Below, piece by piece: positions 6,818 to 38,190 of a stretch of DNA of 64,000 bases. The DNA comes from Planctomycetota bacterium. Lineage in GTDB: Bacteria > Planctomycetota > B15-G4 > SIAN01. The stretch spans positions 64,001 through 128,000 of the forward strand of contig JANNXA010000033.1 in NCBI GenBank assembly GCA_031409275.1, read 5' to 3'. Positions within the stretch are counted from its first letter, which is position 1. Every line of letters starts with the position of its first letter. The position numbers and the translations under genes were made by a program. The notes under the pieces were generated by a model. That model made no database searches and was not told where the DNA came from. It saw nothing but the letters and a program-made list of their open reading frames with translations.

Positions 6818-6840
6818 GCTGCGCCCCTGGCCACGGTGGA

Positions 6841-6846
6841 ATTCTA
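6841..6846 (-). promoter_or_regulatory. Putative -10 box (TAGAAT) of the ECF sigma gene
   Basis: TAGAAT on the minus strand 23 nt before the ATG; changed to TGGAGA in the duplicated copy. Confidence 0.45.
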
Positions 6847-6929
6847 GCCCGCTTTTCGACCCACCTGTAAGAAGCGGGTCGCGCGGCGACAAATCGGACA
6901 GGAAGACCTCTCCTGTTCCGGAGTCCGCC

Positions 6930-18606: not shown

Positions 18607-18704
18607 TCCGGGCTCTCTCGCCAGCGCTCGCCGCGCCAGCGCGGCGTTTCGATCAGCGGCACCGCCATTGCCTAGCACCAACACCACTCTGGGAGGCGGA
18701 GAGC

Positions 18705-19550
18705 ATGCGGCGATCGATCTTGCTGGGACTCCTGACGATCGGGCTGGCCGCATGGTGCCCCGTCGCGCAAGCCCAGGCCCCGTCCGAGGAGACGATCGCC
18801 TACTTCCAACAGAACTGCACCAGCTGCCACACGATCGGCGGCGGGCGGTTGGCGGGTCCCGACCTCAAGGGCGCGCTCCAGCGACGCGATCGGGACTGGC
18901 TGGTGAAGTTCACCCTCGATCCGAAGTCGGTGATCGACTCGGGCGACGCCTACGCGCAGAACCTCCTCAAGGAGGCGCGCGGCGTGGTGATGCCGGCGAT
19001 CCCGACGATGACACGCGATCGAGCGGGGCGATTGATCGACATGATCGAGGCGGAGTCGAAGCTCGAACGCTCGCAGTTCGCAGGCACGCAGATCAGCGAA
19101 AGGCCGCTCACCGCCGCCGACGCTGAACTGGGCGCACGCCTCTTCCGCGGCACGCAGCGATTCGCGCGCGGCTCCCCGGCCTGCATCGGGTGCCACACGA
19201 CTCGCGAGATCGGCGGGCTCGGGGGCGGCGTCCTCGGCCCGGACCTCACGGCAGCGTACTCGCGGATCGAGGGTCGCAAGGCGTTGGCGGCGTGGCTCTC
19301 GTCACCGCCGTCTCTGACGATGGCGCCCGTCTACCGTCGCAGCCCGCTCGACCCGGACGAGGTGCTCGCCGTGGTCGCGTACCTGCAAGTCGTGGCCGAG
19401 CAGGGCGCACCCCCCGATCCGCCGCCGACGCTCGCGCTGGTTCTGTCGGGTTGCGGCGGCGCCGGCCTCGTGATCTTCCTGTTCGATTTCCTTTGGCGGG
19501 GGCGCTTCCGTGATGTGCGCCGCTCGCTGGTAGAGCGGGGACGTGCATGA
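18705..19550 (+). CDS. Membrane-anchored periplasmic dihaem cytochrome c (NarC-like)
   Basis: Signal peptide, CTSCH..GPDL..M and CIGCH..GPDL..M, C-terminal TM helix; ATGA overlap with narG. Confidence 0.88.
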
Positions 19551-22500
19551 ACTTCGACGGCAAGCATCCCTTCATCGACGATCGAGTCGATGCCGGCGCG
19601 CGACAGTGGGAGGAGTTCTATCGCAACCGCTGGCAGCACGACAAAGTCGTGCGCAGCACGCACGGCGTCAACTGCACCGGATCGTGCTCGTGGCAGATCC
19701 ACGTCAAGGACGGGATCGTCACCTGGGAGATGCAGGGGCTCGACTACCCGCGCATCTCGTCCGAGATCCCGCCCTACGAGCCGCGCGGATGCCAGCGCGG
19801 GATCTCCTACTCGTGGTACCTCTATTCGCCGATGCGGGTGAAGCACCCGTACATCCGCGGCGCGCTGCTCGATCTCTGGAAGGAAGCGCGCGCGCAGCAT
19901 GACGATCCGGTCGATGCATGGCGCAGCCTCGTCGACGACCCGGTCAAGCGGGCGCGCTGGCAGCGGGCGCGCGGCAAGGGAGGTTTGCGTCGCGCGAGCT
20001 GGGAGACGGCCCTCGACATCGTCTCCGCTTCGGCGATCCACACGATCCAGCGCCACGGGCCCGATCGAATCGCCGGCTTCTCCCCGATTCCCGCGATGTC
20101 GATGCTCTCGTATGCGGCCGGCGCGCGAATGCTGCAGTTGATGGGCGGCGTGAGCCTGTCGTTCTACGACCGGTACTGCGACCTGCCGAGCGCGTCGCCC
20201 GAGACCTGGGGCGAACAAACCGACGTCAACGAGTCGGCCGACTGGTTCCACGCCAAGATGATCGCCGTCTGCGGCTCGAACCTGAACATGACCCGCACGC
20301 CGGACGTGCACTTCGCCGCCGAGGCGCGCACGAACGGCAGCAAGATGGTCGTCTTCTCGCCGGACTTCTCGCAGGTCTCGAAGTTCGCGGACGAGTGGAT
20401 CGCGGTCAACGCGGGGCAGGACGGCGCGTGGTGGATGGCGGTGAATCACGTCATCCTGAAGGAGTTCCACCACGATCGCGCGTGCAAGCCGTTCCTCGAC
20501 CACGTGCGCGGCTTCTCCGATGCGCCGTTCCTCATCGAGTTGATCACGACACCCGCGGGCACCCGTCCCGGTCGGATGGTGCCGGCCGGTCGCCTCGAGC
20601 GCTACGCCGCCGAGGACAACGGCGACTGGAAGTTCCTCCAGTGGGATCGCACCAGCGGCGAGCCCCGGATGCCACTCGGCAGCGTCGGCCATCGCTGGTC
20701 GAAAGAGAAGGGCAAGTGGAACCTGCAGCCGAAGGACGGGCGTGACGGCAGCGGCATCGATGCGGAGCTCTCGTTCCTCGGCGCCGGGGACGGCGTCGAG
20801 ATGGTGGAGTTCGACGACTTCGGCGGCGACACGACCCTGACACGCGGAGTGCCGTACAAGGTCCTGCAGACCAAGGGCGGTCCGATCAAGGTCGCGACGA
20901 TCTACGACGTCTTGATGGCGCAGTACGGCGTTCCGCGCGGCCTGCCGGGCGCCTACCCCACGAGCTACGACGACGAGACGTCACCCTACACGCCCGCCTG
21001 GTCGGAGAAGTACACCGGGATCGATCGCAAGACGTTGCTGCGGTTCGCGCGCGAGTGGGCGTCGACGGCCGAATCCACCGGCGGCAAGTGCAGCGTGATC
21101 ATCGGTGCAGGCATCAACCACTGGTACCACGCCAACCTCATGTACCGGGCAGCCATCCACGCCCTGGTCTTCTGTGGTTGTGTGGGCGTGAACGGCGGCG
21201 GCCTCGCCCACTACGTCGGCCAGGAGAAGCTCGCGCCGATGGAGCCGTGGTCGGCGATCGCGTTCGCGAAGGACTGGTATCCGTCCTCGCGCCTGCAGAA
21301 CACGCCGAGCTGGCACTACGTGCACAGCGATCAGTGGCGCTACGAGAAGAACTTCAGCGACTACTCGGCGACGCCGCACGCCAACGAGGAGGGCAGTTTC
21401 GTCACCGGTCATTCGATCGACCAGAACGTGCGCGCGGTGCGCAACGGGTGGTTGCCCTTCTATCCGCAGTTCACCTGCAATCCGCTCGACGTCACGAAGG
21501 CCGCCGAGAAGGCGGGCGCCACCGATGAAGCGGGCGTGGTGCGCCACGTCGTCGATCGCCTGAAGTCACGCGACCTCAAGTTCGCGATCGAGGATCCGGA
21601 CGCCCCGGAGTCGTGGCCTCGGCTCTGGTTCATCTGGCGCGGCAACGCGCTCATGTCGTCGGCGAAGGGGCACGAGTACTTCCTCAAGCACTATCTCGGC
21701 ACGCACCACAACGACATCGCGGAAGACCTCGCCGAAGGCTCGGTGAAGGAGGTCACTTGGCGCAGCCCCGCGCCCGAAGGGAAGCTCGACCTCGTCGTCG
21801 ACCTGAACTTCCGGATGGACACCACGGCCCTCTACTCCGACGTGATCCTCCCGGCGGCCACGTGGTACGAGAAGGCTGACCTCAACTCGACGGACATGCA
21901 CAGTTTCATCCACCCGCTGTCGGCAGCCGTGCCGCCTTGCTGGGAGTCGAAGAGCGACTGGGACATCTTCCGAGCCATCTCGAAGCGCTTTTCCGAACTG
22001 GCGGTGAAGCACTTTCCGGGACCGGTCAAGGACCTCGTCGCGGCGCCGCTCGCGCACGACACGCCGGCCGAGATCGCGCAGCGCGATCCAAAGGATTGGA
22101 GCCGCGGCGAGTGCGACGCGGTGCCGGGCAAGACGATGCCGTCGTTCAAGGTGGTCGAGCGCGACTACCGGAAGCTCTACCAGCAATTCATCGCCCTCGG
22201 ACCGAAGGTGCGCGAGAACGGGCTGGGCGCCCACGGAACGCACTACAAAGTCGATGACGTCTACGACGAGATGGTGGCGACCGGGCCCGTGACGCGGGTC
22301 GATGACCGACTCCACCCTTCGCTCGAGGATGCCACCCAGGCCTGCGACGTCGTGCTGGGGATGGCGAGCGTCACCAACGGCGAGCTCGCCTGGCGTTCCT
22401 ACAAGGCCATGGAAGAGAAGGTCGGCCTGCCGCTCGCGGATCTCGCCGCCGGGAACCGCGGTGCGCGCCTGCGCTACAAGGACCTGCAGGCGCAACCGCG

Positions 22501-23188
22501 CCGGCTGCTGAACAGCCCGATGTGGTCGGGGCTCGTCGACAACGGCCGCACCTATGCGCCGTTCACCTACAACCGCGAGCGGCTCGTTCCGTGGCGCACG
22601 CTGACCGGGCGCCAGCATCTCTACCTCGACCACGAGGCGTACCTGCAGGCCGGCGAGCACCTGCCGACCTACAAGCAGAAGCTGCTGCCCGCGCAGTACG
22701 CCGACTTGCGCTTCAGCAAGGACGACGGCGGCGCGGTGATGCTGAACTACCTCACGCCGCACGGCAAATGGCACATCCACTCGACGTACGGCGAGACCGA
22801 GAGGATGACGACGCTGTCGCGCGGCTGCGAGCCGCTGTGGCTCAGCCTGAAGGACGCGGACGCGATCGGCATCGCGGACAACGACTGGGTCGAAGTGCAC
22901 AACGACAACGGCGTGGTCGTCACGCGCGCCGTCGTCAGCGCCCGCATCCCGTCCGGGATCTGCATCCAATACCACAGCCCGGAGCGCACGTGCGGCGTGC
23001 CGCGATCGCCGTCTCGAAATGGCCGGCGTGCAGGCGGCCACAACAGCCTGACACGCACCCGGCTCAAGCCGAACCTGATGATCGGCGGCTACGGGCAGTT
23101 CACCTACCACTTCAACTACTGGGGCCCGATCGGCTGCAACCGCGACACGCATGTTCTGGTGCGTCGGCTGCCCGAGCTGCGCTGGTAG
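19547..23188 (+). CDS. narG: Nitrate reductase / nitrite oxidoreductase alpha subunit (cytoplasm-facing, no Tat signal)
   Basis: [14 protein letters not shown] (FS0), [21 protein letters not shown] Mo-ligand Asp, [28 protein letters not shown]. Confidence 0.97.
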
Positions 23189-23219
23189 CGAGTCGGTCAA
23201 AAGGGCGGAGAGAAGAGAC

Positions 23220-24713
23220 ATGGACGTCCGTTCGCAGATCGCGATGGTGTTCCACCTGGACAAGTGCATCGGATGCCACACGTGCAGCATCGCGTGCAAG
23301 AACATCTGGACCGACCGAGAAGGCACGGAGTACATGTGGTGGAACAACGTCGAGACGAAGCCGGGCACGGGCTTCCCGACGCAGTGGGAGAACCAGGAGA
23401 AGTACAAGGGCGGCTGGGAGAGCGACGGCGAGAAGCTGCGGCTGCGATCGAACGGCAAGGCCCGGATCGTCCCGAACATCTTCCACAACCCGAACCTGCC
23501 GAGCCTCGACGACTACTACGAGCCGTGGACGTATCGCTACTCCGATCTCTTCCAGGCACCCGAGGGCGACGACCAGCCGACCGCCATCCCGATCTCGAAG
23601 ATCACCGGCGAACCGATCGAAGTGAAGTCGGGCCCGAACTGGGACGATGATCTCGGCGGCTCGCGGATCTACGCCCAGGGCGATCCGAACATGCAGAAGC
23701 TGTCGCCACATCTGCAGGAGCAGATGCTCGCGATCGAGCGGCTGGTGTTCTTCTACTTGCCGCGCATCTGCAACCACTGCCTGAACCCGTCGTGCGTCGC
23801 GGCGTGCCCCGCTGGCGCGCTCTACAAGCGGGGTGAGGACGGCATCGTCCTCCTCAACCAGGATCGCTGCCGTGGCTGGCGCGCGTGCGTGTCGGCCTGC
23901 CCCTACAAGAAGACCTACTACAACTGGAAGACGGGCAAGTCCGAGAAGTGCATCCTCTGCTTCCCGCGGCTCGAAAGCGGCCAGGCGCCAGCGTGCTTCC
24001 ACTCGTGCGTCGGCCGCATCCGCTACCTCGGCAACGTCCTGTACGACGCCGATCGATTGCTCGAGCTGGCGAACAAGCCGGATCATGAGCTCGTCGACGC
24101 CCAGCGCGAGATGCTGCTCGACCCGCACGATCCGAAAGTGATCGATGCCGCGCGCAAGAACGGGATCCACGAAGGGATCATCGAGTCGGCGCAGAGATCA
24201 CCGGTCGACAAGTTCGTTCGCGTCTGGAAGATCGCCCTGCCGCCGCACGTCGAGTTCCGGACGTTCCCGATGCTCTTCTACGTCCCGCCGTTGCTGCCAG
24301 TCATGGCCGCCAAGGTCGACGGCAAGCTCGACAACCAGACGGTCGGGATGTTCGGGGACATCGAGAAGGCGCGAGCGCCGATCCAGTACCTCGCCAGCCT
24401 CTTCAGCGCCGGCAACGAGGGGAAGCTCCGCTACGCGTTGAAGAAGCAGGTGGCGGTTCGCCTCCTTCGCCGCCACCTCACCGTCGGCGACGTCAGTCGC
24501 CAGACCGTCGACTTCGCGCTGGCGGAGGCCGACTGCACCGAGAGCGAGGCGAACGAGATCTACCGTCTCACGGCGCTCGCGACGGAAGACGATCGCTTCG
24601 TCATCCCGCCGTTCCAGCGCGAGATGGCGATCGAGATGGTCGAGGATCCGCAGGAGTGGAAGCAGTCGGCAGGCTTCGGCTACCGGCAGTCGCCGCAGGA
24701 AAGGAGACTGTGA
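23220..24713 (+). CDS. narH: Nitrate reductase / nitrite oxidoreductase beta subunit
   Basis: LDKCIGCHTCSIACK, PRICNHCLNPSCVAACP, CRGWRACVSACPY, EKCILCFPR, CVGRIRY. Confidence 0.97.
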   Translation: MDVRSQIAMVFHLDKCIGCHTCSIACKNIWTDREGTEYMWWNNVETKPGTGFPTQWENQEKYKGGWESDGEKLRLRSNGKARIVPNIFHNPNLPSLDDYYEPWTYRYSDLFQAPEGDDQPTAIPISKITGEPIEVKSGPNWDDDLGGSRIYAQGDPNMQKLSPHLQEQMLAIERLVFFYLPRICNHCLNPSCVAACPAGALYKRGEDGIVLLNQDRCRGWRACVSACPYKKTYYNWKTGKSEKCILCFPRLESGQAPACFHSCVGRIRYLGNVLYDADRLLELANKPDHELVDAQREMLLDPHDPKVIDAARKNGIHEGIIESAQRSPVDKFVRVWKIALPPHVEFRTFPMLFYVPPLLPVMAAKVDGKLDNQTVGMFGDIEKARAPIQYLASLFSAGNEGKLRYALKKQVAVRLLRRHLTVGDVSRQTVDFALAEADCTESEANEIYRLTALATEDDRFVIPPFQREMAIEMVEDPQEWKQSAGFGYRQSPQERRL

Positions 24714-24714
24714 C

Positions 24715-25308
24715 ATGGAGGCCATGCTCGATCGCGCCTTGTTGCCAGCTCTGGCCGAACTCCTCGACTATCCGGGAGTGGATCCGCGCGCACAGCTCGC
24801 GGCAGCCAGGCAGCTCGCGGATTCCCTCGCGCCGGAGGCACGTGCCGAGCTGATCGCGTTCGTCGACTGGGCGGAAAGCCGCCCGAACGGTGAGCTCGAG
24901 GAGATCTACGCCGCGACTTTCGACTCGAGCGAGACCTGCGCGCTCGAGCTCGGGTGGCATGTCTACGGCGAAACCTATCCGCGCGGGATCTTCCTGGTCG
25001 AGATGCGGCAGCGGCTGCGAGAGGCCGGCATCGACGAGCGCAGCGAGCTTCCCGACCACCTGTCGCAGGTGTTGCGTTGGCTGGCATGCGCCGACTTCAA
25101 GCAGGGGCACGGCGAAGCGGCGCGGGTCGCACGGATGGTCGTGATCCCCGCCGTTCGCGCGATCGTCGCCGGACTCGAGCAGGCGCATAGCCCCTACGCG
25201 CCGCTGCTCCGCGCCGCCGGCTTCGCGCTCCATCCGAAGTTCCTCGAGCAGACGGCGGCGCAGCGCCCCGAGCCGGCCTCGCCCGAACTCGAAGGAGGCT
25301 GCTCGTGA
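24715..25308 (+). CDS. narJ: Nitrate reductase molybdenum cofactor assembly chaperone
   Basis: LLDYP, LEEIYAATFD, GETYPRG, SELPDHL; lies between narH and narI. Confidence 0.9.
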   Translation: MEAMLDRALLPALAELLDYPGVDPRAQLAAARQLADSLAPEARAELIAFVDWAESRPNGELEEIYAATFDSSETCALELGWHVYGETYPRGIFLVEMRQRLREAGIDERSELPDHLSQVLRWLACADFKQGHGEAARVARMVVIPAVRAIVAGLEQAHSPYAPLLRAAGFALHPKFLEQTAAQRPEPASPELEGGCS

Positions 25309-25994
25309 ATGACTACGTCTTGTTCGCGATCCTGCCCTACATCTCGATGGTGCTGTTCTTCGTCGTGACGATCCAGCGCTACCGGCAACGCAAGTTCACC
25401 TACTCGAGCCTGTCGTCCCAGTTCCTGGAGAACCGGCACCACTTCTTCGGATCGGTGCCGTTCCACTACGGGATCCTGGTGGTGCTCGCCGTGCACGTCC
25501 TGGCCTTCACCGCGCCGGACCTGGTGCTCGGCTGGAACGCGCGGCCGCTGCGACTCTGGGTCGGCGAGCTGACGGTCCTGGCGTTCGCCGTCCTCACACT
25601 GGTCGGATTGGCGAATCTCGTCATCCGCCGCATCACCCACCGGTTGGCCAAGCGCGTCACGACGCTCGGTGACTGGGGCGTCTACCTGCTGCTCGGAGTG
25701 CAGGTCGCTTCCGGCATCGGCGTCGCCGTCTTCCACGGCTGGGGCTCGTCGTGGTTCGCCACGTCCGCGACGCCGTGGCTGTGGTCGTTGATGAAGCTCC
25801 AGCCGGACATCAGCTTCGTCGCGCCGCTGCCGTGGCTCGTGAAGCTCCACATCGTCAACGCCTTCCTCCTCATCGCGTACTTCCCGTTCACGCGGCTCGT
25901 GCACGTGCTGGTCCTTCCCAATCCCTACCTGTGGCGCAAGGAGCAGGTCGTGGTGTGGAACCGTGATCGACGCACGACGCGCGCGGTCGAGTGA
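25305..25994 (+). CDS. narI: Respiratory nitrate reductase gamma subunit (dihaem b membrane anchor)
   Basis: SSLSSQFLE, FHYGIL..H, KLHI..PFTRLVH with four haem-ligand His; 5 TM segments. Confidence 0.95.
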   Translation: MNDYVLFAILPYISMVLFFVVTIQRYRQRKFTYSSLSSQFLENRHHFFGSVPFHYGILVVLAVHVLAFTAPDLVLGWNARPLRLWVGELTVLAFAVLTLVGLANLVIRRITHRLAKRVTTLGDWGVYLLLGVQVASGIGVAVFHGWGSSWFATSATPWLWSLMKLQPDISFVAPLPWLVKLHIVNAFLLIAYFPFTRLVHVLVLPNPYLWRKEQVVVWNRDRRTTRAVE

Positions 25995-26004
25995 GGAGTC
26001 CTCC

Positions 26005-27615
26005 ATGAGCACCTCCGTCGTCGATCCGTCACCTCCTGGCGCGGCCGTCCGCGGTGCCGCTGCATCGCCGCGCCTCGGGCGCTGGCGCACGTTCGAGCGG
26101 TTCAACCCTGACGACGCGGCTTCCTGGGAATCCGGCGGTCGGCGCGCGGCGCTGCGCAATCTCCTGATCAGCGTCCCGTGCCTCCTCTGCGGCTTCGCCG
26201 TCTGGGGCTACTGGTCGATCATCACCGTGCAGATGCAGAACCTCGGGTTCCCGTTCCGCAAGGAGCAGCTCTACACGCTCTCTGCGATCGCCGGGCTCGC
26301 GGGCGCGACGTTGCGCATTCCCAACTCGTTCTTCGTCGCGTTGGCGGGAGGGCGCAATGCGGTGGCCGCGACGACGGCACTGCTGCTCCTGCCGTCCATC
26401 GGCGCCGGCGTCGCGCTGCGCGATCCGCAGACTCCCTACAGCTGGTTCGTGATCCTCGCGGCGCTGTCGGGCATCGGCGGCGGCGCCTTCGCCTCCTCGA
26501 TGTCGAACATCTCGTTCTTCTTCCCGAAGCGCATGCAAGGCACCGCGCTGGGCGTCAACGCCGGGATCGGCAACCTCGGCGTGAGCCTGATGCAAGTGCT
26601 GCTGCCCTTCGTGATGGGCTTCGCGCTGTTCGGCGCCATCTCCGGTGATGGCCTTCCGTTGCCCGGGGCGGAGACTCCGACGCTGATCTGGCTCCAGAAC
26701 TGCGGATTGGTCTGGGTTCCAGGACTGGTCGTGCTCGCGATCGCCGCGTGGTTCGGCATGAACAACCTGCCGCAGCATGCCGCCGGCCATCCGCTCGGCG
26801 CCGTGGCGAAGATGCTCTGGCTCACGCTGCTCGGATTCGCTGCCGCGGCCGCGGGGCTCACGCTGCTCCTGATCGTCGGATGGAGCATGTGGATCGTCCT
26901 GCCGTTCACGATCATGCTGACCCTCGTGCTGATGCGATTCGCGACGCCTGCTCCCGTTCGGACGCGGCTGCGATCCCAGTTCGCGATCTTCCGCGAGAAG
27001 CACACCTGGGTGATGTCGTGGCTCTACACCATGACGTTCGGCTCGTTCATCGGGTACTCCTTCGCGTTCCCGAAGCTGATCCAGGATGTGTTCGGGACGC
27101 TCCCCGACGGGACCAAGAACCCGTTCGCGCCCAGTCCGCTGAAGTACGCGTGGCTGGGGGCGTTGGTCGGTTCGCTGATCCGTCCGCTCGGTGGATGGCT
27201 CTCGGACAAGTTCGGCGGGGCGCGCGTCACGCAGTGGGACACGGTCGTGATGATCGGCGCCGCGCTCGGCGTCGCGCACTACGTCAAGCTGGCCGGCGGC
27301 TCGCCGCATCCGGAGGAGTACTTCACTCCCTTCCTGCTGCTCTTCCTGCTGCTCTTCGTGACCACGGGAATCGGCAACGGCTCGACGTTCCGGATGATTC
27401 CGATCATCTTCAAGCCCGATCTGGCCGGCCCGATCCTCGGCTGGACATCGGCGATCGCCGCGTACGGCGCGTACATCGTCCCGAAGGTCTTCGGTGCCCA
27501 GATCCAGGCCAAGACCCCGCACTACGCGCTGTGGGGTTTCGCGATCTACTACGCCACCTGCCTCGCGGTGAACTGGTGGTACTACGCGCGGCGCGGCGCC
27601 GAAAGGCCGTGCTGA
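26005..27615 (+). CDS. narK: NarK-family nitrate/nitrite MFS transporter (NarK2-like)
   Basis: RNLLIS, GATLRIP, GGGAFASSMSNISFFFPK, GxNAGIGNLG, TFGSFIGYS, GIGNGSTF nitrate signatures. Confidence 0.93.
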   Translation: MSTSVVDPSPPGAAVRGAAASPRLGRWRTFERFNPDDAASWESGGRRAALRNLLISVPCLLCGFAVWGYWSIITVQMQNLGFPFRKEQLYTLSAIAGLAGATLRIPNSFFVALAGGRNAVAATTALLLLPSIGAGVALRDPQTPYSWFVILAALSGIGGGAFASSMSNISFFFPKRMQGTALGVNAGIGNLGVSLMQVLLPFVMGFALFGAISGDGLPLPGAETPTLIWLQNCGLVWVPGLVVLAIAAWFGMNNLPQHAAGHPLGAVAKMLWLTLLGFAAAAAGLTLLLIVGWSMWIVLPFTIMLTLVLMRFATPAPVRTRLRSQFAIFREKHTWVMSWLYTMTFGSFIGYSFAFPKLIQDVFGTLPDGTKNPFAPSPLKYAWLGALVGSLIRPLGGWLSDKFGGARVTQWDTVVMIGAALGVAHYVKLAGGSPHPEEYFTPFLLLFLLLFVTTGIGNGSTFRMIPIIFKPDLAGPILGWTSAIAAYGAYIVPKVFGAQIQAKTPHYALWGFAIYYATCLAVNWWYYARRGAERPC

Positions 27616-27616
27616 G

Positions 27617-28270
27617 ATGCTGGCGCGGTCGCTTCGCATCCTTGCACTCGTGGCGGTCGTCTTCGGTGGCGCCGCGATGATCTTCGCCGGCGATGTGCGC
27701 GGCGTCGGCGACCACACGGGCTTCGCGCCGAGCCAGCCGATCGCGTTCTCGCATCGACTTCACGCCGGCGAGCTGCAGGTGCAGTGCCTCTACTGTCATG
27801 CCGGCGCGGAGCGGAGCCGGCATGCCGGCCTGCCCGAGGCGAGCCTCTGCATGAACTGCCACCAGAGCGTGACCGCGCCGCGCGATCGCGTGCTCGAGGA
27901 GCAGGCGGCGGCGGCGGCGCAGGGGCGCGAGCCGAAGCTCGTCTTCTCGTCCGAGATCGCGAAGGTCTACGCGGCGCTCGGACTCGACTCCTTCGGGAAG
28001 CGCGATCCGGCGCAGGAGCCGCGGCCCATCGAGTGGGTCCGCGTCCATCACCTGCCGGACTTCGTCTACTTCGATCACCGACCCCACGTGCTGCGCGGCG
28101 TCGCGTGCGAGACCTGCCACGGGCCGGTTCAGAGCATGGACCGGGTGCGGCAGGAAGCGTCGCTCTCGATGGGCTGGTGCATGGAGTGCCATCGGGCCAG
28201 CCGTGTGACTCTGCGGCCGGAGCTTCCGGCGCAGCCGGTCTCGACCGATTGCACGACATGCCATTTCTAG
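27617..28270 (+). CDS. actA: Alternative complex III pentahaem cytochrome c subunit
   Basis: N-terminal TM, PSQPIAFSHRLHAG, five CxxCH (CLYCH, CMNCH, CETCH, CMECH, CTTCH), WVRVHHLPDFVYFDH. Confidence 0.92.
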   Translation: MLARSLRILALVAVVFGGAAMIFAGDVRGVGDHTGFAPSQPIAFSHRLHAGELQVQCLYCHAGAERSRHAGLPEASLCMNCHQSVTAPRDRVLEEQAAAAAQGREPKLVFSSEIAKVYAALGLDSFGKRDPAQEPRPIEWVRVHHLPDFVYFDHRPHVLRGVACETCHGPVQSMDRVRQEASLSMGWCMECHRASRVTLRPELPAQPVSTDCTTCHF

Positions 28271-28277
28271 GAGCAGC

Positions 28278-31200
28278 ATGATGGACGGCGATCGGCCCGG
28301 TCGGCCGTGGCGAAGCCTCTCCGAGCTGGACGGCACATTCGTTCCGTTCGACCCGAACGCCGACGTCCGTCGCGAGTGGTTCGACTTGCCGACCGAGCTC
28401 GTCGATGGAATCACACCGTCGCGCCGCTCCTTCCTCAAACTCGCGGGTTTCGGTTTCGCGGGCGCCGCGCTCTCCGCTTGCAGCCGCGCCCCGATCGAGA
28501 AGGCGATCCCGCTCTTGGTGCGACCCGAGACGATCGTCCCGGGCAAGTCGTACTGGATGGCGACGACCTGTGCCGGCTGTCCGGCTGGTTGCGGCGTCCT
28601 CGCGAAGTGTCGGGACGGCCGTCCGATCAAGCTCGAGGGCAATCCGCAGCAGTCGATCGGCCGTGGCGGTCTCTGCGCGGTCGGTCAGGCGCAGCTCCTT
28701 TCGCTGTACGACGCGAAGCGGTTGACGGGCGCCCGGCACGCCGGCGATGCGCTGGAATTCTCCGCCGCCGACACGGAGCTCCGCGCACGCCTCGACGAGG
28801 TGCGCGCGCGCGGCGGCGCCGTGCGAGTGTTGACTGGCACCGAGACGTCGCCGAGCACGCGTGCCGCCATCGACCGCTTCGTGGGCAGCTTTCGCGACGG
28901 GAGGCATGTCGCGTACGACGCGCTCTCGAGCTCGGCGCTGCTCGACGCGCACGCGGCCACGCACGGTGTGCGCGCGCTGCCACGCATTCGGCTCGAACGC
29001 GCGCGGCGGATCGTCGCGATCGAGGCGGACTTCCTCGGCACCTGGATCTCGCCGGTCGAGTACACGTTGGGCCGACGCATGGCGCGCGATCCCGAGCGGC
29101 CTGCCGAGTTCGCGCGCCACGTGCAGATCGAGTCGGCGATGTCGCTGTCCGGCAGCGTCGCCGATCGACGGCTGGCGCTTGCGCCGTGGCAGGTCGGCGC
29201 CGCCGTCGGCGAACTGGCCCGGCATGTCGCTGCTCGCGCCGGCGTGAAGTTGCCGATCGAGCTGCCGCCGTTCGACGATCCGATGGCAGCGCAGTTGGAA
29301 GCGATCGCCGCTGATCTGTTCGATCATCACGGACGCGCGGTCGTGCTCTGCGGCAGCGGCGACGTCGCGGTGCAGAAGCTCGTGAACTGGGTGAACGAGC
29401 AGATCGGGGCCTACGGCACGATCCTCGACCTCGCAGCGCCGTCGTTCCAGCGCCTCGGCGACGAACGCGCGCTTGCGACGCTGCGACGCGAGCTCGACGA
29501 GGGAAAGGTCGAAGTCCTCGTGATCGCGGGCGTGAACCCGGCGTACGACTTCCCCGATGCGAGTGCCTTCCGCGAGTCGGTGGGCCGGGTCGGGCTCGTG
29601 GTCTGCTGTGCGACTCACGAAGACGAGACGACGGCGCTTGCGCATTGGGTGCTGGCGCTGCCGCACTTCCTCGAGACGTGGAACGATGCCGAGCCGGTCG
29701 CGGGTCTGCTCGCCCTGACGCAGCCGACGGTGCCGCCGCTCAAGGCCGCGCGCACGTTGCGCCAGACGCTCGCGAGCTGGCTTGGCGATGCGCGCGACGA
29801 TCACGCGTTGGTGCGCGATCACCATCAGGAGTGGTTGGCGGCTCACGAGATCACCGGGCCGACGTTCGAGCAGTCGTTGCACGAGGGGTTCTTCGAAGTC
29901 GCGCAGAACGCCGCAACGACCGCTGCCGCGAGCCGACCCTTCCGCGCCGCAGCGCTCGAAGTTCCGGCGGTGGGGGCGCTGCCACCGGAGGGGGCGCTTG
30001 CGCCGGTGCTGCACGCGCAGGTCGGGATGCCGGACGGCCGCCACGCGCATAACCCGTGGCTGCACGAGCTCCCCGATCCGATCACCAAGGTCGTCTGGGA
30101 CAACGTGGCCGCGGTTGCTCCCGCGACGGCGCAACGGCTCGGAGTGACCACCGGCGATGTGGTGCGAATCACCGCCGTCGGTGGCCAGGCCGTCGTCGAG
30201 CTGCCGCTCCTGGTGCAGCCGGGAATGCACCCAGGCGCGGTGGCGATCGCGCGCTTCTACGGAAGGCGCGGGACCGATCGATTCACGCGCGTGGGGCCGC
30301 AGTGGCTCGAGGCGAAGGCGACCGTCGCGCCAGGTGGCGTCGTCGGCGTCGACGTGTCGATGTTGCGCGAAGCGTCCGCGGTGGAGCTCTCGGCCACCGG
30401 GCGTCGGGTGAAGCTCGCCTGCACGCAAGACCACCATTCGCTCACCGTGCCGGAGCACCTCGCGCCGGAGGGCGGCGAAGTGCGTGACGCGGTACGCGAA
30501 GTCACGCTGGCCACGCTCCTTGCGCATCCGCAACACGCGCTCGAGCGCGAGACGACGGAGGGCGCGGAGCTCTGGCCGGAAGACCACCTTCATGCCGGCC
30601 CGCAGTGGGGCATGGCGATCGACCTTTCGGCATGCACCGGCTGCTCCGCGTGCGTGGTCGGCTGCCAGGCCGAGAACAACGTTCCGGTGGTCGGCAGGGA
30701 CGAGGTGCGTCGCCATCGAGAGATGCACTGGATCCGCATCGACCGCTACTGGCAGGGCGAAGCGGAAGATCCACGCGCGCTGCATCAGCCGATGATGTGC
30801 CAGCAGTGCGGACATGCGCCGTGCGAGACGGTCTGTCCGGTGTTGGCAACGGTTCACTCGACCGAGGGCCTGAACCAGCAGATCTACAACCGCTGCGTCG
30901 GCACGCGCTACTGCGCCAACAACTGCCCGTACAAGGTCCGCCGCTTCAACTGGTTCGACTATCCGCACGAAGACCGGTTGCAGAACCTGGCGCTCAATCC
31001 CGACGTCGCCATCCGCAGCCGCGGCGTGATGGAGAAGTGCAGCTTCTGCGTGCAGCGCATCCTCGAGGCCAAGTTGACGGCCAAAGAAGAGGGGCGCAGC
31101 GTGCGCGACGGAGACGTTCAGTCGGCATGCCAGCAGAGCTGCCCGGCCCAGGCGATCGTCTTCGGCGACCTGTCCGATCCAGCGAGCCGCGTCTCGCGCC

Positions 31201-31299
31201 TCGCGCAGAACGGGCGCAGCTACCGCGTGCTCGAGGAGCTGAACGTGAAGCCGGTGGTGAACTACCTCGCCGTGGTTCGCGATCAAGAGGAGCGGCGCG

Positions 31300-31310
<11 letters not shown>
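28278..31310 (+). CDS. actB: Alternative complex III fused molybdopterin-oxidoreductase-like/Fe-S subunit
   Basis: Tat-lipoprotein SRRSFLK...LSAC; GRPIKLEGNP; CTGCSACVVGCQAENN, MCQQCGHAPCETVCP, YNRCVGTRYCANNCPY, RGVMEKCSFCVQR. Confidence 0.93.
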
Positions 31311-32663
<1,353 letters not shown>

Positions 32664-32667
<4 letters not shown>

Positions 32668-33209
32668 GTCGCCGCGTGCACGTCGCGCTCTTCGAGGACG
32701 GAGCAGAGCTGGTGGCTGCGGCGAACGCGTGCAGCCGCCTCCGGATCCCGATCGTCGACGCCTATCTGCCGTTTCCGGTGCATGGGCTCGACGAGGCGAT
32801 GGGGCTGCGGCGCTCCCGATTGCCGCTCGTCTGCTTCGGCGGCGGGCTGGTCGGCCTGTCGCTCGGTCTCGCGCTGCAGTACTGGACGTCCGCCGTCGAC
32901 TGGCCTCTGAACGTCGGCGGCAAGCCGTTCCAGTCGTTCCCTGCGTTCGTGCCGGTGGCGTTCGAACTCATGGTCCTGTGCGCTGGTCTCGCGACTGCAG
33001 GCGCGCTGTTCGTGCGCTCGCGTTTGCTGCCCGGCCATGTCGGCGTGGTCGTCGATCCTCGCGTCAGCGACGACCGCTTCGTGCTGGTCGTCGCTCCGGC
33101 GGGCGCGTCGATCCGGGCCGCTGACCTGCGCGCATTGCTGATGGAGCATGGCGCGATCGAGTGCCGCGAGCAGATCGTCACCGATCGTCACGTGGAGGCG
33201 CGGTCATGA
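32664..33209 (+). CDS. actD: Alternative complex III subunit D (DUF3341)
   Basis: DAYLPFPVHGLDEAMG, DWPLNVGGKP, PAFVPVAFEL, DPRVSDDRF; two TM helices. Confidence 0.92.
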
Positions 33210-33784
33210 GCGAGTGGAAGCGCACCGGATGGGTGCTCGTCCTCGCGGCGGCGGCGCTCGCGGCGCTCCGCGCGCTGACGGTCGTCAACTCCGATCGCCG
33301 CGGCCTCGAGTTCTTCCCCGACATGGCGCGCTCCTGCGCTGCCGAGTCCTACGCGCCGAGCGATCTGCTGCCAGGCGGCACGACGCAGCAGCCGCTCGTC
33401 GTCGGAACCGTCGTGCGCGGCAGCGAACCGTTCCCGTTCGAGCCGACGCCGGCGGGCGCGATCGCTGCGGGCGAACAGCTCGCCAATCCGTTTCGCGCGG
33501 ACGATGCGGCGGCGCGCGCGCGTGGCGCCGACCGCTTCGCGAACTTCTGCGTGGTGTGCCATGGCGCCGATGGCCTCGGGCGCGGTCCGGCAGTCGCGCG
33601 CGGCATGCCGCCGCCGCCGTCGTTGCTGGCCGACCGCACGCGCGCGCTCCGCGACGGCCAGTTGTTCCACGTGCTGACTTGCGGTCAGGGCGGCATGGCG
33701 AGCTATGCCGCGGTCCTTACTCCCGCGGATCGCTGGAAGCTGATCCTGCATGTGCGCGCGCTGCAGGCTGGAGGCGCGCCATGA
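33206..33784 (+). CDS. actE: Alternative complex III monohaem cytochrome c subunit
   Basis: EFFPDM, VGTVVRG, LANP, CVVCHG, DGQLFHVLT.G.G.M.SYA, DRW. Confidence 0.9.
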   Translation: MSEWKRTGWVLVLAAAALAALRALTVVNSDRRGLEFFPDMARSCAAESYAPSDLLPGGTTQQPLVVGTVVRGSEPFPFEPTPAGAIAAGEQLANPFRADDAAARARGADRFANFCVVCHGADGLGRGPAVARGMPPPPSLLADRTRALRDGQLFHVLTCGQGGMASYAAVLTPADRWKLILHVRALQAGGAP

Positions 33785-34950
33785 ATCCGTCTGGCAGCGA
33801 TCCGCTTGCGCGCGCTTCGCGCCGACTGCTCCTGGTCGGGGCGATCGCCGGGACCGTGCTCCTCGCGGGGTTCTTCGTCGATCCTCGCCGTGCGTGGACC
33901 GGCTGGTTGCTCGGCTTCCTGGCGGCAACGTGCCTCGCGTTGGCCGGGCCGCTCTTCCTTTCGCTGTTGCGAGTTTCGGGCGCGCGCTGGGCCACCGCGT
34001 TGACTCCGGTGCCGCTGGCGATGGGGAGGCTGCTCCCATGGGCAGGGCTCGCCGGAGTCGTCCTCCTGTTGGGGGTGCCGACGCTCTACGAATGGGCTCA
34101 CGGACATGGCCACGACGAGTTGCTGGCGCGCAAGGCCGCATGGTTGAACGTCCCCGCTTTCTCGGCGCGCCTGGTCGGGTGTTTCGCCGTCTGGCTGCTC
34201 TTCGAGCGCGTGCTTCGACGCAGCGAACGGAGCCCGTCCGACGCAGGGCGCCGGCAGAAGCTCGCCGCCGCCTTCATCGCGACGTTCGCGATCACGTGGT
34301 CGGTCGCGAGCATCGACTGGGTCGCATCGCTCGAGCCGCACTGGTCGAGCACGATCTTCGCGCTGCGCACCGCCACGGCGCTCGTGCTGCTCGGTCTCGC
34401 GTCCGCAACGCTGCTGGTGCTGCTCGCACGACACCACGGACCGGTCGCCGGTCGCGTCACCGCGGCCCATGTCCACGATCTCGGCAAGCTGCTGCTCTCC
34501 TTCAGCGTGCTGTGGGTCTACATCTGGTTCTGCCAGTACATGTTGATCTGGTACTCCGACCTCCCCGAAGAGGCCGTCTACTACACGCGCCGAGCGACGT
34601 CAGGCTGGCGCGCAGCCAGTTGGGCGAGCCTCTTGCTGCTCTTCTTCCTGCCGTTCCTCGCGCTGCTGTTCGAGCGTGCGCGCCGCAGCCCTGAGGTGCT
34701 CGTCCGCGTGGCATGCGTGCTGCTGGTCGGGGTGGCGCTCGATCTCTGTGTCATGGTCGGGCCCGCGAACTCGCAAGCGGGGCAGTCCATCGGCTGGCCC
34801 GAGCTCGCGGGGCTGCTTTGCGGCTTCGCGCTCTCCTTCGGCGTGATGGTGCGTGCACTTCGCCGCCTCGCGCTCGAACCAGGCCAGGCCGCGTGCCCGC
34901 AGGCCGATGCCGTCACCCGGATCGAGGTTGGGCACTCCCACGCGCACTGA
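33781..34950 (+). CDS. actF: Alternative complex III membrane subunit F
   Basis: LYEW, KAAWLN, DWVASLEPHWSSTIF, HDLGKLL, WVYIWFCQYMLIWYSDLPEE; ~10 TM segments. Confidence 0.92.
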   Translation: MNPSGSDPLARASRRLLLVGAIAGTVLLAGFFVDPRRAWTGWLLGFLAATCLALAGPLFLSLLRVSGARWATALTPVPLAMGRLLPWAGLAGVVLLLGVPTLYEWAHGHGHDELLARKAAWLNVPAFSARLVGCFAVWLLFERVLRRSERSPSDAGRRQKLAAAFIATFAITWSVASIDWVASLEPHWSSTIFALRTATALVLLGLASATLLVLLARHHGPVAGRVTAAHVHDLGKLLLSFSVLWVYIWFCQYMLIWYSDLPEEAVYYTRRATSGWRAASWASLLLLFFLPFLALLFERARRSPEVLVRVACVLLVGVALDLCVMVGPANSQAGQSIGWPELAGLLCGFALSFGVMVRALRRLALEPGQAACPQADAVTRIEVGHSHAH

Positions 34951-35123
34951 CCGTGCGCCGGATTCGGGATGTGGTCCGAGTTCGGGAAGCGGCGCGCGCT
35001 CGGCGCGATTCGCCGGGGAGTCGTGCCCGAAGACCGGGTGGCAGCACCTCGATGGCAGGGCGTGCCGCGAGTCGGTCCATGGGTTGCGGTCGAGGCACCC
35101 ACCATTCACAGGAGAAGAACTCG

Positions 35124-36611
35124 ATGAGTCGAGCACCCCAACGCAAGCTCTCCCGACCGTTGATCGAACTCGCCGTCGGAGCGGCTTGCCTGTTGCAAGT
35201 GCCAGCGACGGGAGTCGTCCCTCAAGCCGCGCCGCCGGCGCCCGCGAAGCCACTCATCGAGATCGGCTGGGGTGACCACCCGCTGCGGATCGAGGGTTGG
35301 GAAGGACTCAAGTTCTGGATGGAGGGACGGTGGCGCGTCGAGCAGTGGCGTCACCTGGAGAAGCCGGGGCAGGACGGCAGCTACAACTACGAGCACACTC
35401 GCGTGCGCCAGGGCTTGTCGCAGACGCTCGGTCCAGTCGAGCTTGGCTTCGAGTGGCAGGCCGTGAACCTGTTCGGCGTCGACCCCCGCGTCCCGGCGGG
35501 CCCCGGCAAGAACTATCGCGACGCAAACAGCGGCGGCTCGCCGCAGTCGCTGTCGATTCGCCAGCTGTACGGCGCCCTCGATGTCGGGGGCCCGAAGCTG
35601 CGCGTCGGACGTCAGCTCTACGAGGACTCCGGCGGCATCAAGTGCGACGATCCGAGTTTCCAGTACGTGCGCGATCGCGGCAATGCGCGCCTGGTGGGAA
35701 CGCTCGATTGGCCGGCCAGCGGCCGGACGTTCGACGGCGTGTCGATCGGCAGCGACAGCGCCAAGTGGCTTCTGCGAGGCATCGGTTTCGAGGCCAATGA
35801 GGGCGCCTTCGACATCGACGATTCCGGCGACTCGCTCGCCGATGTCCGCATCGCGGGCGTCGAGGTCGTGAGCAAGGTCGGGACGCTGGTCCCCAACACG
35901 GAGCTACGCGCCTTCGGTTTCGACTTCCGTGACGATCGCGCGCCGACGACAGCCAAGTTCGGAGACGACCTGCAAGCCGATCTCGTCGGCGTCCAGGCGG
36001 CGTCCCGGATCAAGCTCGGGCCCGGCGCGGTCGATGGCTGGTTCTGGGCGGCACACGAATCGGGTGACGCGGGCACGCGCTCGTTGCGCGCCGGAGCGTG
36101 GATCGCCGAGGCGGGGTATCGCTTCGAGGAAGCTCCGCTGCGTCCTTGGTTGCGCATCGGCCAAGCGCGAGCCCAGGGCGATGCAAGCACGTCCGATGGC
36201 ACCGTCTCGAACTTCTACAACGGGTTGCCGACGAACCACACCTACTACGGCTACGCCGACCTGTTCGGCTTCACGAACCTGCGTGATACGTACGTCGACC
36301 TCCTTCTCGATCCTCATCCGCAGGTGCGCTTCGTGGCGGGCTGGCACGCCTTCGCGTTGCAGCACGAGAAGGGCGGGATCGTCTCCGGAAGCGGTCCGTT
36401 CACTCAAGGGTCGTTCGGCTACGCGACGCTTCCTGCGACATCACGCAACCTCGGCCGCGAGCTCGACCTGACGCTGCGTGCGACGTCTCCCGGGAAGCGG
36501 GTGTTCGCGCTGCTCGGATGGAGTCGATTCTGGGGCGGTACGGCCTACGAGCGCGCCTTCACGCGAGCGGACGTCTCCTTCACCTACCTCGAAGTGGGGT
36601 TCAAGTTCTGA
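35124..36611 (+). CDS. Alginate-export-family outer-membrane beta-barrel (putative anion porin)
   Basis: Signal peptide, LRVGRQ, RLVGTLDW..GRTFDGV, amphipathic strands, LGRELDL, terminal YLEVGFKF; CAGGAG RBS. Confidence 0.8.
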   Translation: MSRAPQRKLSRPLIELAVGAACLLQVPATGVVPQAAPPAPAKPLIEIGWGDHPLRIEGWEGLKFWMEGRWRVEQWRHLEKPGQDGSYNYEHTRVRQGLSQTLGPVELGFEWQAVNLFGVDPRVPAGPGKNYRDANSGGSPQSLSIRQLYGALDVGGPKLRVGRQLYEDSGGIKCDDPSFQYVRDRGNARLVGTLDWPASGRTFDGVSIGSDSAKWLLRGIGFEANEGAFDIDDSGDSLADVRIAGVEVVSKVGTLVPNTELRAFGFDFRDDRAPTTAKFGDDLQADLVGVQAASRIKLGPGAVDGWFWAAHESGDAGTRSLRAGAWIAEAGYRFEEAPLRPWLRIGQARAQGDASTSDGTVSNFYNGLPTNHTYYGYADLFGFTNLRDTYVDLLLDPHPQVRFVAGWHAFALQHEKGGIVSGSGPFTQGSFGYATLPATSRNLGRELDLTLRATSPGKRVFALLGWSRFWGGTAYERAFTRADVSFTYLEVGFKF

Positions 36612-36672
36612 GCGCCGGAGCGTCTGAACGAGGCTGCACCACGGCTGACTCACCTCGACCGGAGAGTTCCCA

Positions 36673-38190
36673 GTGAACCGACGCCGCGTCCCTGAACTCA
36701 TCGACTTCGCGCAGGAACGCATCCGCAACCTGCACTTCACCTGGATCGCGTTCTTCATCTCCTTCTACATGTGGTTCAACATGGCGCCGCTCGCGACGAC
36801 CATGTTGCGCGAAGAGGGCGGAGACGGCGGTTGGCTCACGCCCGGTCACATCAAGTTGCTGGCGATCTGCAACGTCGCGCTGACGATTCCTGCGCGCATC
36901 ATCGTCGGCGCGCTGATCGACCGCTTCGGGCCGCGGCGCTGCTTCGCATGGCTGCTCATGCTCACCGCGATCCCCACGGTCACCTTCGCGCTCGGCAACT
37001 CGTTCACTCAGCTGCTGATCTCGCGCCTGCTGATGAGCACGACTGGCGCGAGCTTCGTCATCGGCATTCGCATGGTGGCGCAGTGGTTCCCGCCGAAGAC
37101 GATGGGCCGTGCCGAGGGGTTCTATGCGGGGTGGGGGAACTTCGGCTCGGCATGGGCCGCGATGACGCTGCCGTGGGTCGCGCTTGAACTCTTCGGCGGC
37201 GGGCACAGCGGCTGGCGCTACGCGCTGGCAGCGAACGGCGTGGTCGCGTTCGGCTATGGCATCGCCTACCTCTTCCTCGTCCGCGACATGCCGGAAGGCA
37301 AGAAGTTCGTCGGGGTTCACAAGGCCCAGCCCCTTCTGGTCAGCAGCCGCTGGGATCTGGTCCAGTACATCCTCTGGTCGTTCCCGTTGGTGGGGGCGCT
37401 CGGTTTCCTTGCGTGGCGGTCGGCCGGAATCCCGCTGGGCAACGGCGGCAGCGAGCGTGTTCTTTCCAGCAACATGCTGTGGCTGACGTATGGCGTGCTC
37501 GCGCTCGTCTTCATCGTGCACGTGCTGAAGAGCGTGCAGGTCAACCTCCCGCACTTGCGCGGCGGCGTCCCGGCCGACATGCGCGTGCACTTCCCGAGTG
37601 TCGCGGCGCTCAATACCACGTACTTCGCGAACTTCGGTGCCGAGCTCGCGGTCGTGTCGATGCTGCCGGCGTTCTTCGAGAAGACCTTCACGATTTCTCC
37701 CACCGTCGCAGGGCTCGTCGCTTCCTCGTTCGCCTTCGTGAACCTGTTCGCTCGACCGCTGGGCGGCCTGTTGTCGGACAACCTGAAGAACCGCAAGTGG
37801 ACCATCGTCCTCTACATGGTCGGCATCGCCGTCGGCTTCTTCGGGATGGCCTTCATCGACGGTGGCTGGCCGCTGTGGCTGGCGGTCGCGCTGACGATCG
37901 GATGCTCGATGTTCGTTCAGGGCGCCGAGGGAGCGACCTTCGCGATCATTCCGATGATCAACAAACGCATGACGGGCCAGATCGCCGGGATGGCAGGCGC
38001 CTACGGCAATGTCGGCGCGGTCGTCTATCTCGTGCTGCTGACGATGGTCGAGTCGAAGACCTTCTTCCTGCTGCTCGCGGCCGGCGCGGCAGTCAGCGTG
38101 GTCGCATGCATGCTCTGGCTGCGTGAACCCGAGGGCTCGTTCGTCGACGAAGCGGAGGCCGCCGCCGCCGAATCGGGATCAGGACACTAG
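36673..38190 (+). CDS. narK: Second NarK/NasA-family nitrate MFS transporter (NarK1/Nrt2-like)
   Basis: LHFTWIAFF, IPARIIVG, GASFVIGIRMVAQWFP, AEGFYAGWGNFG, FGAELA, FARPLGG, AGAYGNVG. Confidence 0.9.
   Translation: MNRRRVPELIDFAQERIRNLHFTWIAFFISFYMWFNMAPLATTMLREEGGDGGWLTPGHIKLLAICNVALTIPARIIVGALIDRFGPRRCFAWLLMLTAIPTVTFALGNSFTQLLISRLLMSTTGASFVIGIRMVAQWFPPKTMGRAEGFYAGWGNFGSAWAAMTLPWVALELFGGGHSGWRYALAANGVVAFGYGIAYLFLVRDMPEGKKFVGVHKAQPLLVSSRWDLVQYILWSFPLVGALGFLAWRSAGIPLGNGGSERVLSSNMLWLTYGVLALVFIVHVLKSVQVNLPHLRGGVPADMRVHFPSVAALNTTYFANFGAELAVVSMLPAFFEKTFTISPTVAGLVASSFAFVNLFARPLGGLLSDNLKNRKWTIVLYMVGIAVGFFGMAFIDGGWPLWLAVALTIGCSMFVQGAEGATFAIIPMINKRMTGQIAGMAGAYGNVGAVVYLVLLTMVESKTFFLLLAAGAAVSVVACMLWLREPEGSFVDEAEAAAAESGSGH

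Follow-up and report, generated by a model that had tools for sequence, protein, structure and literature searches.

A nitrate reductase operon continued by a complete alternative complex III in a planctomycete, and comparative evidence for a link between the two complexes

Introduction

In the textbook view the membrane nitrate reductase takes its electrons directly from quinol, and the gene cluster for alternative complex III (ACIII) is usually, if not universally, found beside a haem-copper oxidase. Here we describe a run of 14 genes in a 64,000-nucleotide stretch of DNA from a Planctomycetota bacterium (assembly GCA_031409275.1, contig JANNXA010000033.1, positions 64,001 to 128,000; hereafter the window) in which a NarC-type nitrate reductase (Nar) operon runs on into a full set of ACIII genes. 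Both halves are known, the one as Thermus NarCGHI and the other as ACIII; the joined operon is real and widespread and is a combination of known parts. Comparison across genomes provides evidence pointing to a physical or electronic link between the two complexes, and we give an even chance to the possibility that they would work in series, from menaquinol to nitrate.

The closest described nitrate reductase is encoded by narCGHJIKT of Thermus thermophilus, which also begins with a dihaem NarC gene followed by narGHJI and narK, and which shares with the window a short NarG N-terminus and an Arg in NarI at E. coli position 86. Thermus NarI is the best match to window NarI in a plasmid collection (42%). 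Thermus NarC contacts NarI and is required for maturation (PMC7694296, PMC10609526), and it has been proposed to stand in for complex III. There are no act genes within 9 kb of the Thermus locus, whereas the window run contains a complete complex III equivalent.

The second half of the run resembles the ACIII of Flavobacterium johnsoniae (PDB 6BTM), Rhodothermus marinus (6F0K), Roseiflexus (6LOD) and Chloroflexus (8K9E/9ILT) in its six subunits, haem counts, ActC residues and ActB fold. It differs from these solved complexes in having no adjoining oxidase, in belonging to a separate ActC clade and in an ActB with a four-Cys FS0 motif. Window ActA also lacks the extra monohaem domain of 6BTM_A, and a similar domain sits in NarC; in the F. 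johnsoniae complex this mobile domain is a proposed electron shuttle to the oxidase (PMC8552683). QrcABCD of Desulfovibrio likewise combines a multihaem c subunit, a molybdoenzyme-like subunit, an Fe-S subunit and an NrfD-family anchor, but Qrc models all score below cut-off on the window genes, in which B1 and B2 are fused and ActD, ActE and ActF are present. Finally, the Nitrobacter-type nitrite oxidoreductase cluster has NarG/H/I homologues and a periplasmic cytochrome c by which electrons pass between haems in the membrane and the periplasm (PMC7694296), although Nitrobacter is an autotroph running nitrite to nitrate and RuBisCO was not found in the host assembly (5.59 Mb, 92.9% complete).

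A joined nar-act operon is not described in the excerpts of PMC10609526, PMC9270275, PMC9426454, PMC9386147, PMC10390337, PMC3362086 and PMC6303296, nor in those of PMC10100899, PMC3534657, PMC7439408, PMC8552683, PMC5928083 and PMC7694296; the ACIII cluster surveys of Refojo and of Yanyushin may mention one. In one survey ActB is taken to be strictly aerobic (PMC10100899), and proton pumping by ACIII was an open question, with no proton-to-electron data, as of PMC7439408.

Results

Fourteen intact, co-oriented open reading frames (ORFs) occupy positions 18705-38190 of the + strand in the order narC-G-H-J-I-K-actA-B-C-D-E-F-porin-narK. They are listed here with the putative promoter that precedes them (E, expect value).

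18657..18671, +: candidate sigma-54 (-24/-12) promoter, 33 bp before narC
18705..19550, +: narC, dihaem cytochrome c that has a signal at its N-terminus and a membrane anchor at its C-terminus (2 CxxCH; 27% to Thermus NarC)
19547..23188, +: narG, nitrate reductase alpha subunit (TIGR01580, 1491 bits against a cut-off of 1084)
23220..24713, +: narH, Fe-S subunit (TIGR01660, 628 bits against a cut-off of 524)
24715..25308, +: narJ, chaperone (above the TIGR00684 cut-off)
25305..25994, +: narI, dihaem b anchor (NCBIfam cut-off passed; four haem His present)
26005..27615, +: narK-type nitrate/nitrite transporter 1 (TIGR00886, 278 bits, below the cut-off of 312; NarU subfamily match)
27617..28270, +: actA, pentahaem cytochrome with N-terminal membrane helix (5 CxxCH; 6BTM_A, E 9e-47)
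28278..31310, +: actB, fused B1-B2 with a twin-arginine-type (Tat) signal (6F0K_B, E 2e-172; PF04879 above cut-off)
31300..32667, +: actC, quinol-site subunit (6BTM_C, E 4e-180)
32664..33209, +: actD (PF11821, E 3e-53)
33206..33784, +: actE, monohaem c with a hydrophobic N-terminus lacking a lipobox Cys (1 CxxCH; 6BTM_E, E 1e-21)
33781..34950, +: actF (6F0K_F, E 3e-41)
35124..36611, +: outer-membrane beta-barrel of the alginate-export family, accessory (PF13372, E 5e-27)
36673..38190, +: narK-type nitrate/nitrite transporter 2 (TIGR00886, 310 bits against a cut-off of 312)

Successive gaps in this order are -4, 31, 1, -4, 10, 1, 7, -11, -4, -4, -4, 173 and 61 bp. An earlier sequence-only reading of this DNA had reported the same gene order, co-orientation and spacing, with which our recomputed ORFs agree. 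NarG, NarH, NarJ and NarI all exceed curated NCBIfam cut-offs; actABCDEF are in order and each is homologous to a subunit of the solved ACIIIs, these being the best PDB matches of ActA, ActB, ActC, ActE and ActF, with ActD passing PF11821. The alginate-export barrel is rare in related loci, with a match in 1 of 80 and in one further locus (L104). No oxidase gene lies within the run, as the earlier reading had said; COX1 matches in this genome are confined to other contigs (C18 and C55).

The narK/actA junction at 27616 lies inside contigs from three of four freshwater-sediment sequencing runs (X1, 21792-30749; X2, 23331-30749; X3, 27540-28173), with 0 differences and flat depth, and an assembly artefact at this point is thereby ruled out. 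The four runs make up one study, possibly the source of the DNA; they exclude a mis-join and do not amount to independent support.

Nor is the linkage unique to this assembly. It recurs in relatives and in 41 of 80 fetched ActC loci and is, for that reason, not a product of chance. The 80 loci are the best of 594 confirmed ActC matches from 25 of the 64 parts of a GTDB scan; because loci were chosen by likeness to the query, frequencies among them are biased. The sets of loci may overlap, and a 10-kb flank is too short to reach narC in nar-linked loci. The 41 nar-linked loci span 8 named phyla; of the 60 loci with at least 7 kb of upstream sequence, 40 are nar-linked. The remainder comprise 2 with narK at a contig edge, 9 that lack NarGH, 6 linked to an oxidase and 22 others, 16 of the last being too short for classification. 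Among the best matches listed, the nearest named relatives of window ActC are Planctomycetota. NarG was found in 11 of 60 relatives of the host; in six of these narG and a window-type ActC share a contig and lie 7-9 kb apart, in three a contig end interrupts the operon, one is split into two loci and one has a distant ActC only. In family f2, ActC is present in 12/12 and NarG in 0/12, and the five lower-identity ActC loci fetched are all oxidase-linked. In a quick LG+G4 tree (the model used for all trees) of 98 ActC rows, a clade of 85 (SH-like approximate likelihood ratio support 99) takes in every nar-linked row (49) and every NarGH-less row (9) but none of the 12 oxidase-linked ones. The sequence-only reading had proposed a dedicated N-oxyanion module, and these results support a dedicated and conserved one, with an ACIII from a clade that held no oxidase-linked copy in this sample.

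In some relatives the nitrate-reducing subunits are missing. We take it from the E. coli NarI structure that His56 and His205 ligate the inner haem bP, and His66 and His187 the outer, periplasm-side haem bD. All four are kept in window NarI and in 48/48 nar-linked NarI. Nine of the 80 loci read narC-narI-actABCDEF without narGHJ, and in their NarI the ligands of bD are kept (His66 in 8/8, one row being truncated, and His187 in 9/9) while those of bP are gone (His56 in 0/8, His205 in 0/9; five have a His one residue later). A search of 121 genomes from the class of one such locus (L068) returned 30 NarI-like loci, 23 of them with the narC-narI-act layout; in these 23 NarI the two bP His are always missing, and both bD His are present in 22. 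NarG was found in none of these 23 genomes, in contrast to 6/6 of those with a four-His NarI, and in none of five genomes in a second set with NarGH-less loci (one genome is common to both sets). Twelve NarGH-less loci that we widened all show full actA-F. NarGH-less rows require four changes on the tree, and a single origin is rejected (approximately unbiased test, p 0.0004, on a 59-row subset with 51 rows left out); as judged from these trees, NarGHJ is gone and narC-narI-act kept in at least three separate lineages. Genomes with this form include single contigs of 8-13 Mb, as large as those of cultured myxobacteria typically are, from the class to which a Myxococcaceae record belongs. In addition, four fusions of NarI to ActA were seen, one in locus L063 and the others in 3 of 59 longer NarI forms; each lacks bP and keeps bD, Gly65 and Arg86.

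Because NarC and the bD ligands are kept where NarGHJ is absent, and the same holds in the fusions, NarC and haem bD travel with ACIII. We infer that NarC and haem bD are functionally tied to ACIII and that bP serves NarGH; NarC plus bD is probably the connection by which ACIII would pass electrons on towards nitrate. The sequence-only reading had made the dihaem cytochrome the connection between Nar and ACIII, which fits the persistence of NarC beside ACIII after NarGHJ is lost, but it had missed haem bD. As to neighbouring genes, ccoN lies within the fetched stretch of L068 and in 2 of the 12 widened loci, and a dihaem gene lies just upstream of the NarGH-less narC in two loci (L154:5565-6860 and L152:13486-14682), the former belonging to the cytochrome c peroxidase/MauG family.

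In the nitrate reductase half, narC directly precedes narG with a 4-bp overlap and encodes a membrane-anchored dihaem c, as in Thermus-type NarCGHI. Domain 1 of NarC is similar to the monohaem domain found in ActA of F. johnsoniae (6BTM_A 55-138, E 6e-14). PDB entry 2L4D matches it nearly as well, and with scores about equal we do not accept the likeness as proof of descent. Window NarG departs from its relatives at residue 209, in the FYDWYCDLP motif, where 17/17 other aligned rows have Trp and the window alone has Arg (codon CGG at 20171-20173, with no other letter in the run contigs). The change lies three residues before the Asp ligand of Mo, which is itself kept, and may impair this copy.

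Gly65 and Lys86 of E. coli NarI are presumed here to line the quinol site. In window NarI they are Val and Arg; Thermus NarI has Gly and Arg, on which account we rejected Lys86Arg as a sign that the site has been lost. The Gly65 position is Val or Leu in the window and in 9/9 relatives of its order. Among the 59 longer NarI forms, 36 (within P0130-P0173) have a C-terminal Rieske domain fused to a NarI with all four haem His, making a bc-like NarI module possible, and in 11 proteins (P0123-P0158) a monohaem cytochrome c like NarC domain 1 is fused before a four-His NarI.

The ACIII half keeps the haem counts and ActC residues of the complex: five CxxCH occur in 53/53 related ActA and one in 49/49 related ActE, and ActC keeps His94, His136, Asp167, His241 and Arg389, the quinol-site and proton-path residues named for Roseiflexus (PMC7439408), all five being present in 97 of 98 rows (one row is truncated). 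In ActB, Cys98, Cys101, Cys105 and Cys133 form a four-Cys motif of FS0 type that is absent from three aligned solved ActB; the B1 domain of solved ActB carries no prosthetic group (PMC5928083). An extra [4Fe-4S] cluster is predicted at this site. The motif occurs in 39/39 nar loci, 9/9 NarGH-less loci, 12/12 wider loci and 0/6 oxidase-linked loci. It is lost in 6/6 nar-linked relatives of family f4 and present in four loci with no nar gene despite at least 7 kb of upstream sequence (L051, L057, L061 and L066), and we therefore rejected it as a strict marker of nar linkage. These four carriers, mostly from Myxococcota records, have no nar, narC or oxidase match nearby. A predicted model of ActB (predicted local distance difference test score 84) has ActB chains as its top five fold matches, with TM (template modelling) scores of about 0.8. 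Apparent fusions of ActB to ActC (L044), ActC to ActD (L021) and ActF to NarK (L093) were seen in single loci of metagenome-assembled genomes and may be frameshifts, and in locus L094 a second run, actC-actD-actF-coxA-coxB, diverges from a full actA-F cluster.

The site at 18657-18671 was recognised with what we take to be the sigma-54 -24/-12 consensus. It is the sole match to the pattern on either strand of the window (22 in the genome). Of 8 relatives with 300 bp or more before narC, 5 have the pattern there as well. In 4 of the 6 relatives inspected for it, a frame for a GAFTGA activator comes immediately upstream, and a fifth has a fragment of one. The pattern does not precede any of 8 NarGH-less loci that were checked, nor the Thermus locus. 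We found no FNR box within 2 mismatches in nine regions upstream of narC and no sigma-70 site upstream of narC. We infer a single, sigma-54-driven transcript.

Turning to the host, there is no second complete ACIII in the assembly and no second ActD, ActE or ActF was found in it. Contig C16 (L003:6989-13800) has a tetrahaem cytochrome and a four-gene Qrc-like cluster (pentahaem c, molybdoenzyme-like, Fe-S and NrfD-like) without ActD, ActE or ActF. The COX1 search gave two matches, an aa3-like oxidase (C18) and a cbb3-like oxidase (C55), both with bc-type cytochrome b genes 6-7 kb upstream, and contig C27 has a Rieske gene plus a cytochrome b-c pair. Searches of the 92.9% complete assembly yielded no NrfA, NosZ or Nor-type COX1 homologue and nothing beyond weak fragments for NirK and cd1; menaquinone synthesis genes are present. 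With no Nir, Nor, Nos or Nrf found and with bc-type genes beside each oxidase, nitrate is left as the obvious sink for ACIII. This bears on two statements of the sequence-only reading. Its suggestion that ACIII feeds downstream nitrite or NO reductases is weak for this host. Its worry that this might be the sole ACIII, with a partner oxidase elsewhere, is partly justified: this is the only complete ACIII and two oxidases do lie elsewhere, but both come with bc-type genes.

Two further features of the host were seen. Upstream of ccoP-N-O on C55 (L002:6151-8858), a cytochrome b split over two frames is followed by an octahaem cytochrome with a weak match to hydrazine dehydrogenase. Across the assembly 27 frames have at least four CxxCH and up to 23 (C28, C30, C33, C43 and C20); some may be spurious, and together they suggest extracellular electron transfer.

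Discussion

We favour, at even chances, a scenario in which menaquinol would be oxidised at ActC and electrons would pass through ActB and then the ActA/ActE haems to NarC and the outer haem bD of NarI, and from bD across the membrane via haem bP to NarH and NarG, where nitrate would be reduced. We predict that NarC also lets electrons out sideways to acceptors in the periplasm, and in the NarGH-less forms no other job would remain for it. Physical contact, forward flow and any extra charge separation are part of the proposal. In its favour are the recurrent nar-act linkage, the ActC clade free of oxidase-linked rows, the retention of NarC and the bD ligands in NarGH-less loci, the NarI-ActA fusions, the likeness of NarC domain 1 to the mobile ActA haem domain, the shortage of other sinks for ACIII in the host and the Val or Leu at the Gly65 position of the NarI quinol site in the order of the host. 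With menaquinol at about -70 mV and nitrate at about +420 mV, the span would leave room for more charge separation than the Nar loop affords, only if the b haems are tuned above those of E. coli.

A more specific version of this series scheme, which we hold tentatively and think somewhat less probable than the scheme itself, is that ACIII, NarC, NarI and NarGH form a supercomplex that would move more charge per nitrate than the Nar loop, with bD as the junction of ACIII, the nitrate path and NarC, and with a fifth Fe-S cluster in ActB. Repeated loss of NarGH would then have left a so far unrecognised ACIII of eight subunits, among them a b subunit with one haem, and this form would be common in myxobacteria.

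Several observations weigh against the series scheme. Haem bD of E. coli NarI lies at about +20 mV. The ActE haem of R. marinus lies at +165 mV (PMC5928083), and flow from high-potential c haems to bD is uphill unless bD has been retuned. Were the wiring purely serial, bD would also lead nowhere after the loss of bP; since the bD ligands persist all the same, this haem should have a different partner or play a structural part. NarI probably remains able to oxidise quinol on its own, because Gly65 is kept in 40/48 nar-linked NarI and Arg86, present in all of them, occurs in Thermus as well. In 6/6 aligned nar operons without ACIII nearby, Gly65 is replaced by Ala; we thus rejected loss of Gly65 as specific to ACIII, since only the bulky Val/Leu is. 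Furthermore: (i) NarC-type nar operons without ACIII exist (Thermus and 7 further loci); (ii) one relative (G009) has narCGHJI and narK-narK-act-porin in separate loci (L103/L104); (iii) window NarG carries the unique Trp209Arg; (iv) there are only three well-supported independent contrasts for loss of NarGH (four on all branches), for which a sign test gives p 0.25; and (v) our locus frequencies are biased as described above.

The strongest competing explanation, which we consider possible but rather unlikely, is that the two complexes are parallel branches sharing NarC, with NarI oxidising quinol for nitrate and ACIII feeding NarC under low oxygen for delivery to a cbb3 oxidase, a peroxidase, N-oxide reductases or multihaem conduits. 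For Thermus, it has been proposed that electrons branch off through NarC to nitrite and NO reductases (PMC7694296). Retention of Gly65, which extends to 4/4 NarI-ActA fusions, fits parallel branches, as does the persistence of NarGH-less forms without a nitrate reductase, and candidate acceptors are at hand in the ccoN genes near L068 and in the wider loci, the dihaem peroxidase-family gene upstream in L154 and the 27 multihaem host frames. However, searches of the host assembly turned up no Nir, Nor, Nos or Nrf, both oxidases there have bc-type genes, and sharing of NarC leaves the retention of the bD ligands and the fusion of NarI to ActA unexplained.

Improbable, in our judgement, is a loop in which ACIII runs in reverse. 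Low-potential periplasmic donors would deliver electrons to ActA or the extra ActB cluster, ActC would reduce menaquinone with cytoplasmic protons, and NarI would reoxidise menaquinol at bD, with the electrons going to nitrate or, in forms without NarGH, to NarC. There is precedent in QrcABCD, an ACIII relative that reduces menaquinone electrogenically (PMC6303296). With such a loop there would no longer be two redundant quinol oxidases, and the retention of bD without bP would be explained; the wide occurrence of the FS0 motif in the nar, NarGH-less and wider loci and the presence of menaquinone synthesis genes are in keeping with it. On the other hand, ActC matches quinol-oxidising ACIII (E 4e-180) much better than it does QrcD (E 4e-6), ActD, ActE and ActF are kept, no donor enzyme is linked, FS0 is lost throughout the family f4 relatives, and Gly65 is gone from most unfused NarI that have only bD.

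Slightly less probable again is co-regulation alone, that is, two independent complexes under one low-oxygen or nitrate promoter. The shared sigma-54 site and the relative with nar and act in separate loci speak for it, but it would not account for NarC and a bD-only NarI staying with ACIII in at least three lineages, or for the fusion of NarI to ActA. Very improbable is nitrite oxidation, with Nar as a Nitrobacter-type nitrite oxidoreductase and ACIII returning some electrons uphill to the quinone pool: electrons pass from a NarI homologue to a NarC homologue in the similar Nitrobacter cluster (PMC7694296), but RuBisCO was not found in the host assembly and window NarG is 61% identical to Thermus NarG.

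If the series scheme is correct, nitrate respiration in many uncultured bacteria of freshwater, soil and sludge would have to be credited with a different energy yield, the route from ACIII to nitrate possibly being the more energy-efficient one, and the link would provide an oxygen-free system in which to ask whether ACIII pumps protons. The NarGH-less form in genomes of the myxobacterial class may make the NarC/bD link genetically testable.

Elsewhere in the window, two tandem RHS-repeat proteins sharing an N-terminal domain are encoded at 6765-8738 and 9047-10843, and an FG-GAP protein at 13321-16269 reads as if off-frame over residues of about 600-770, possibly reflecting frameshifts.

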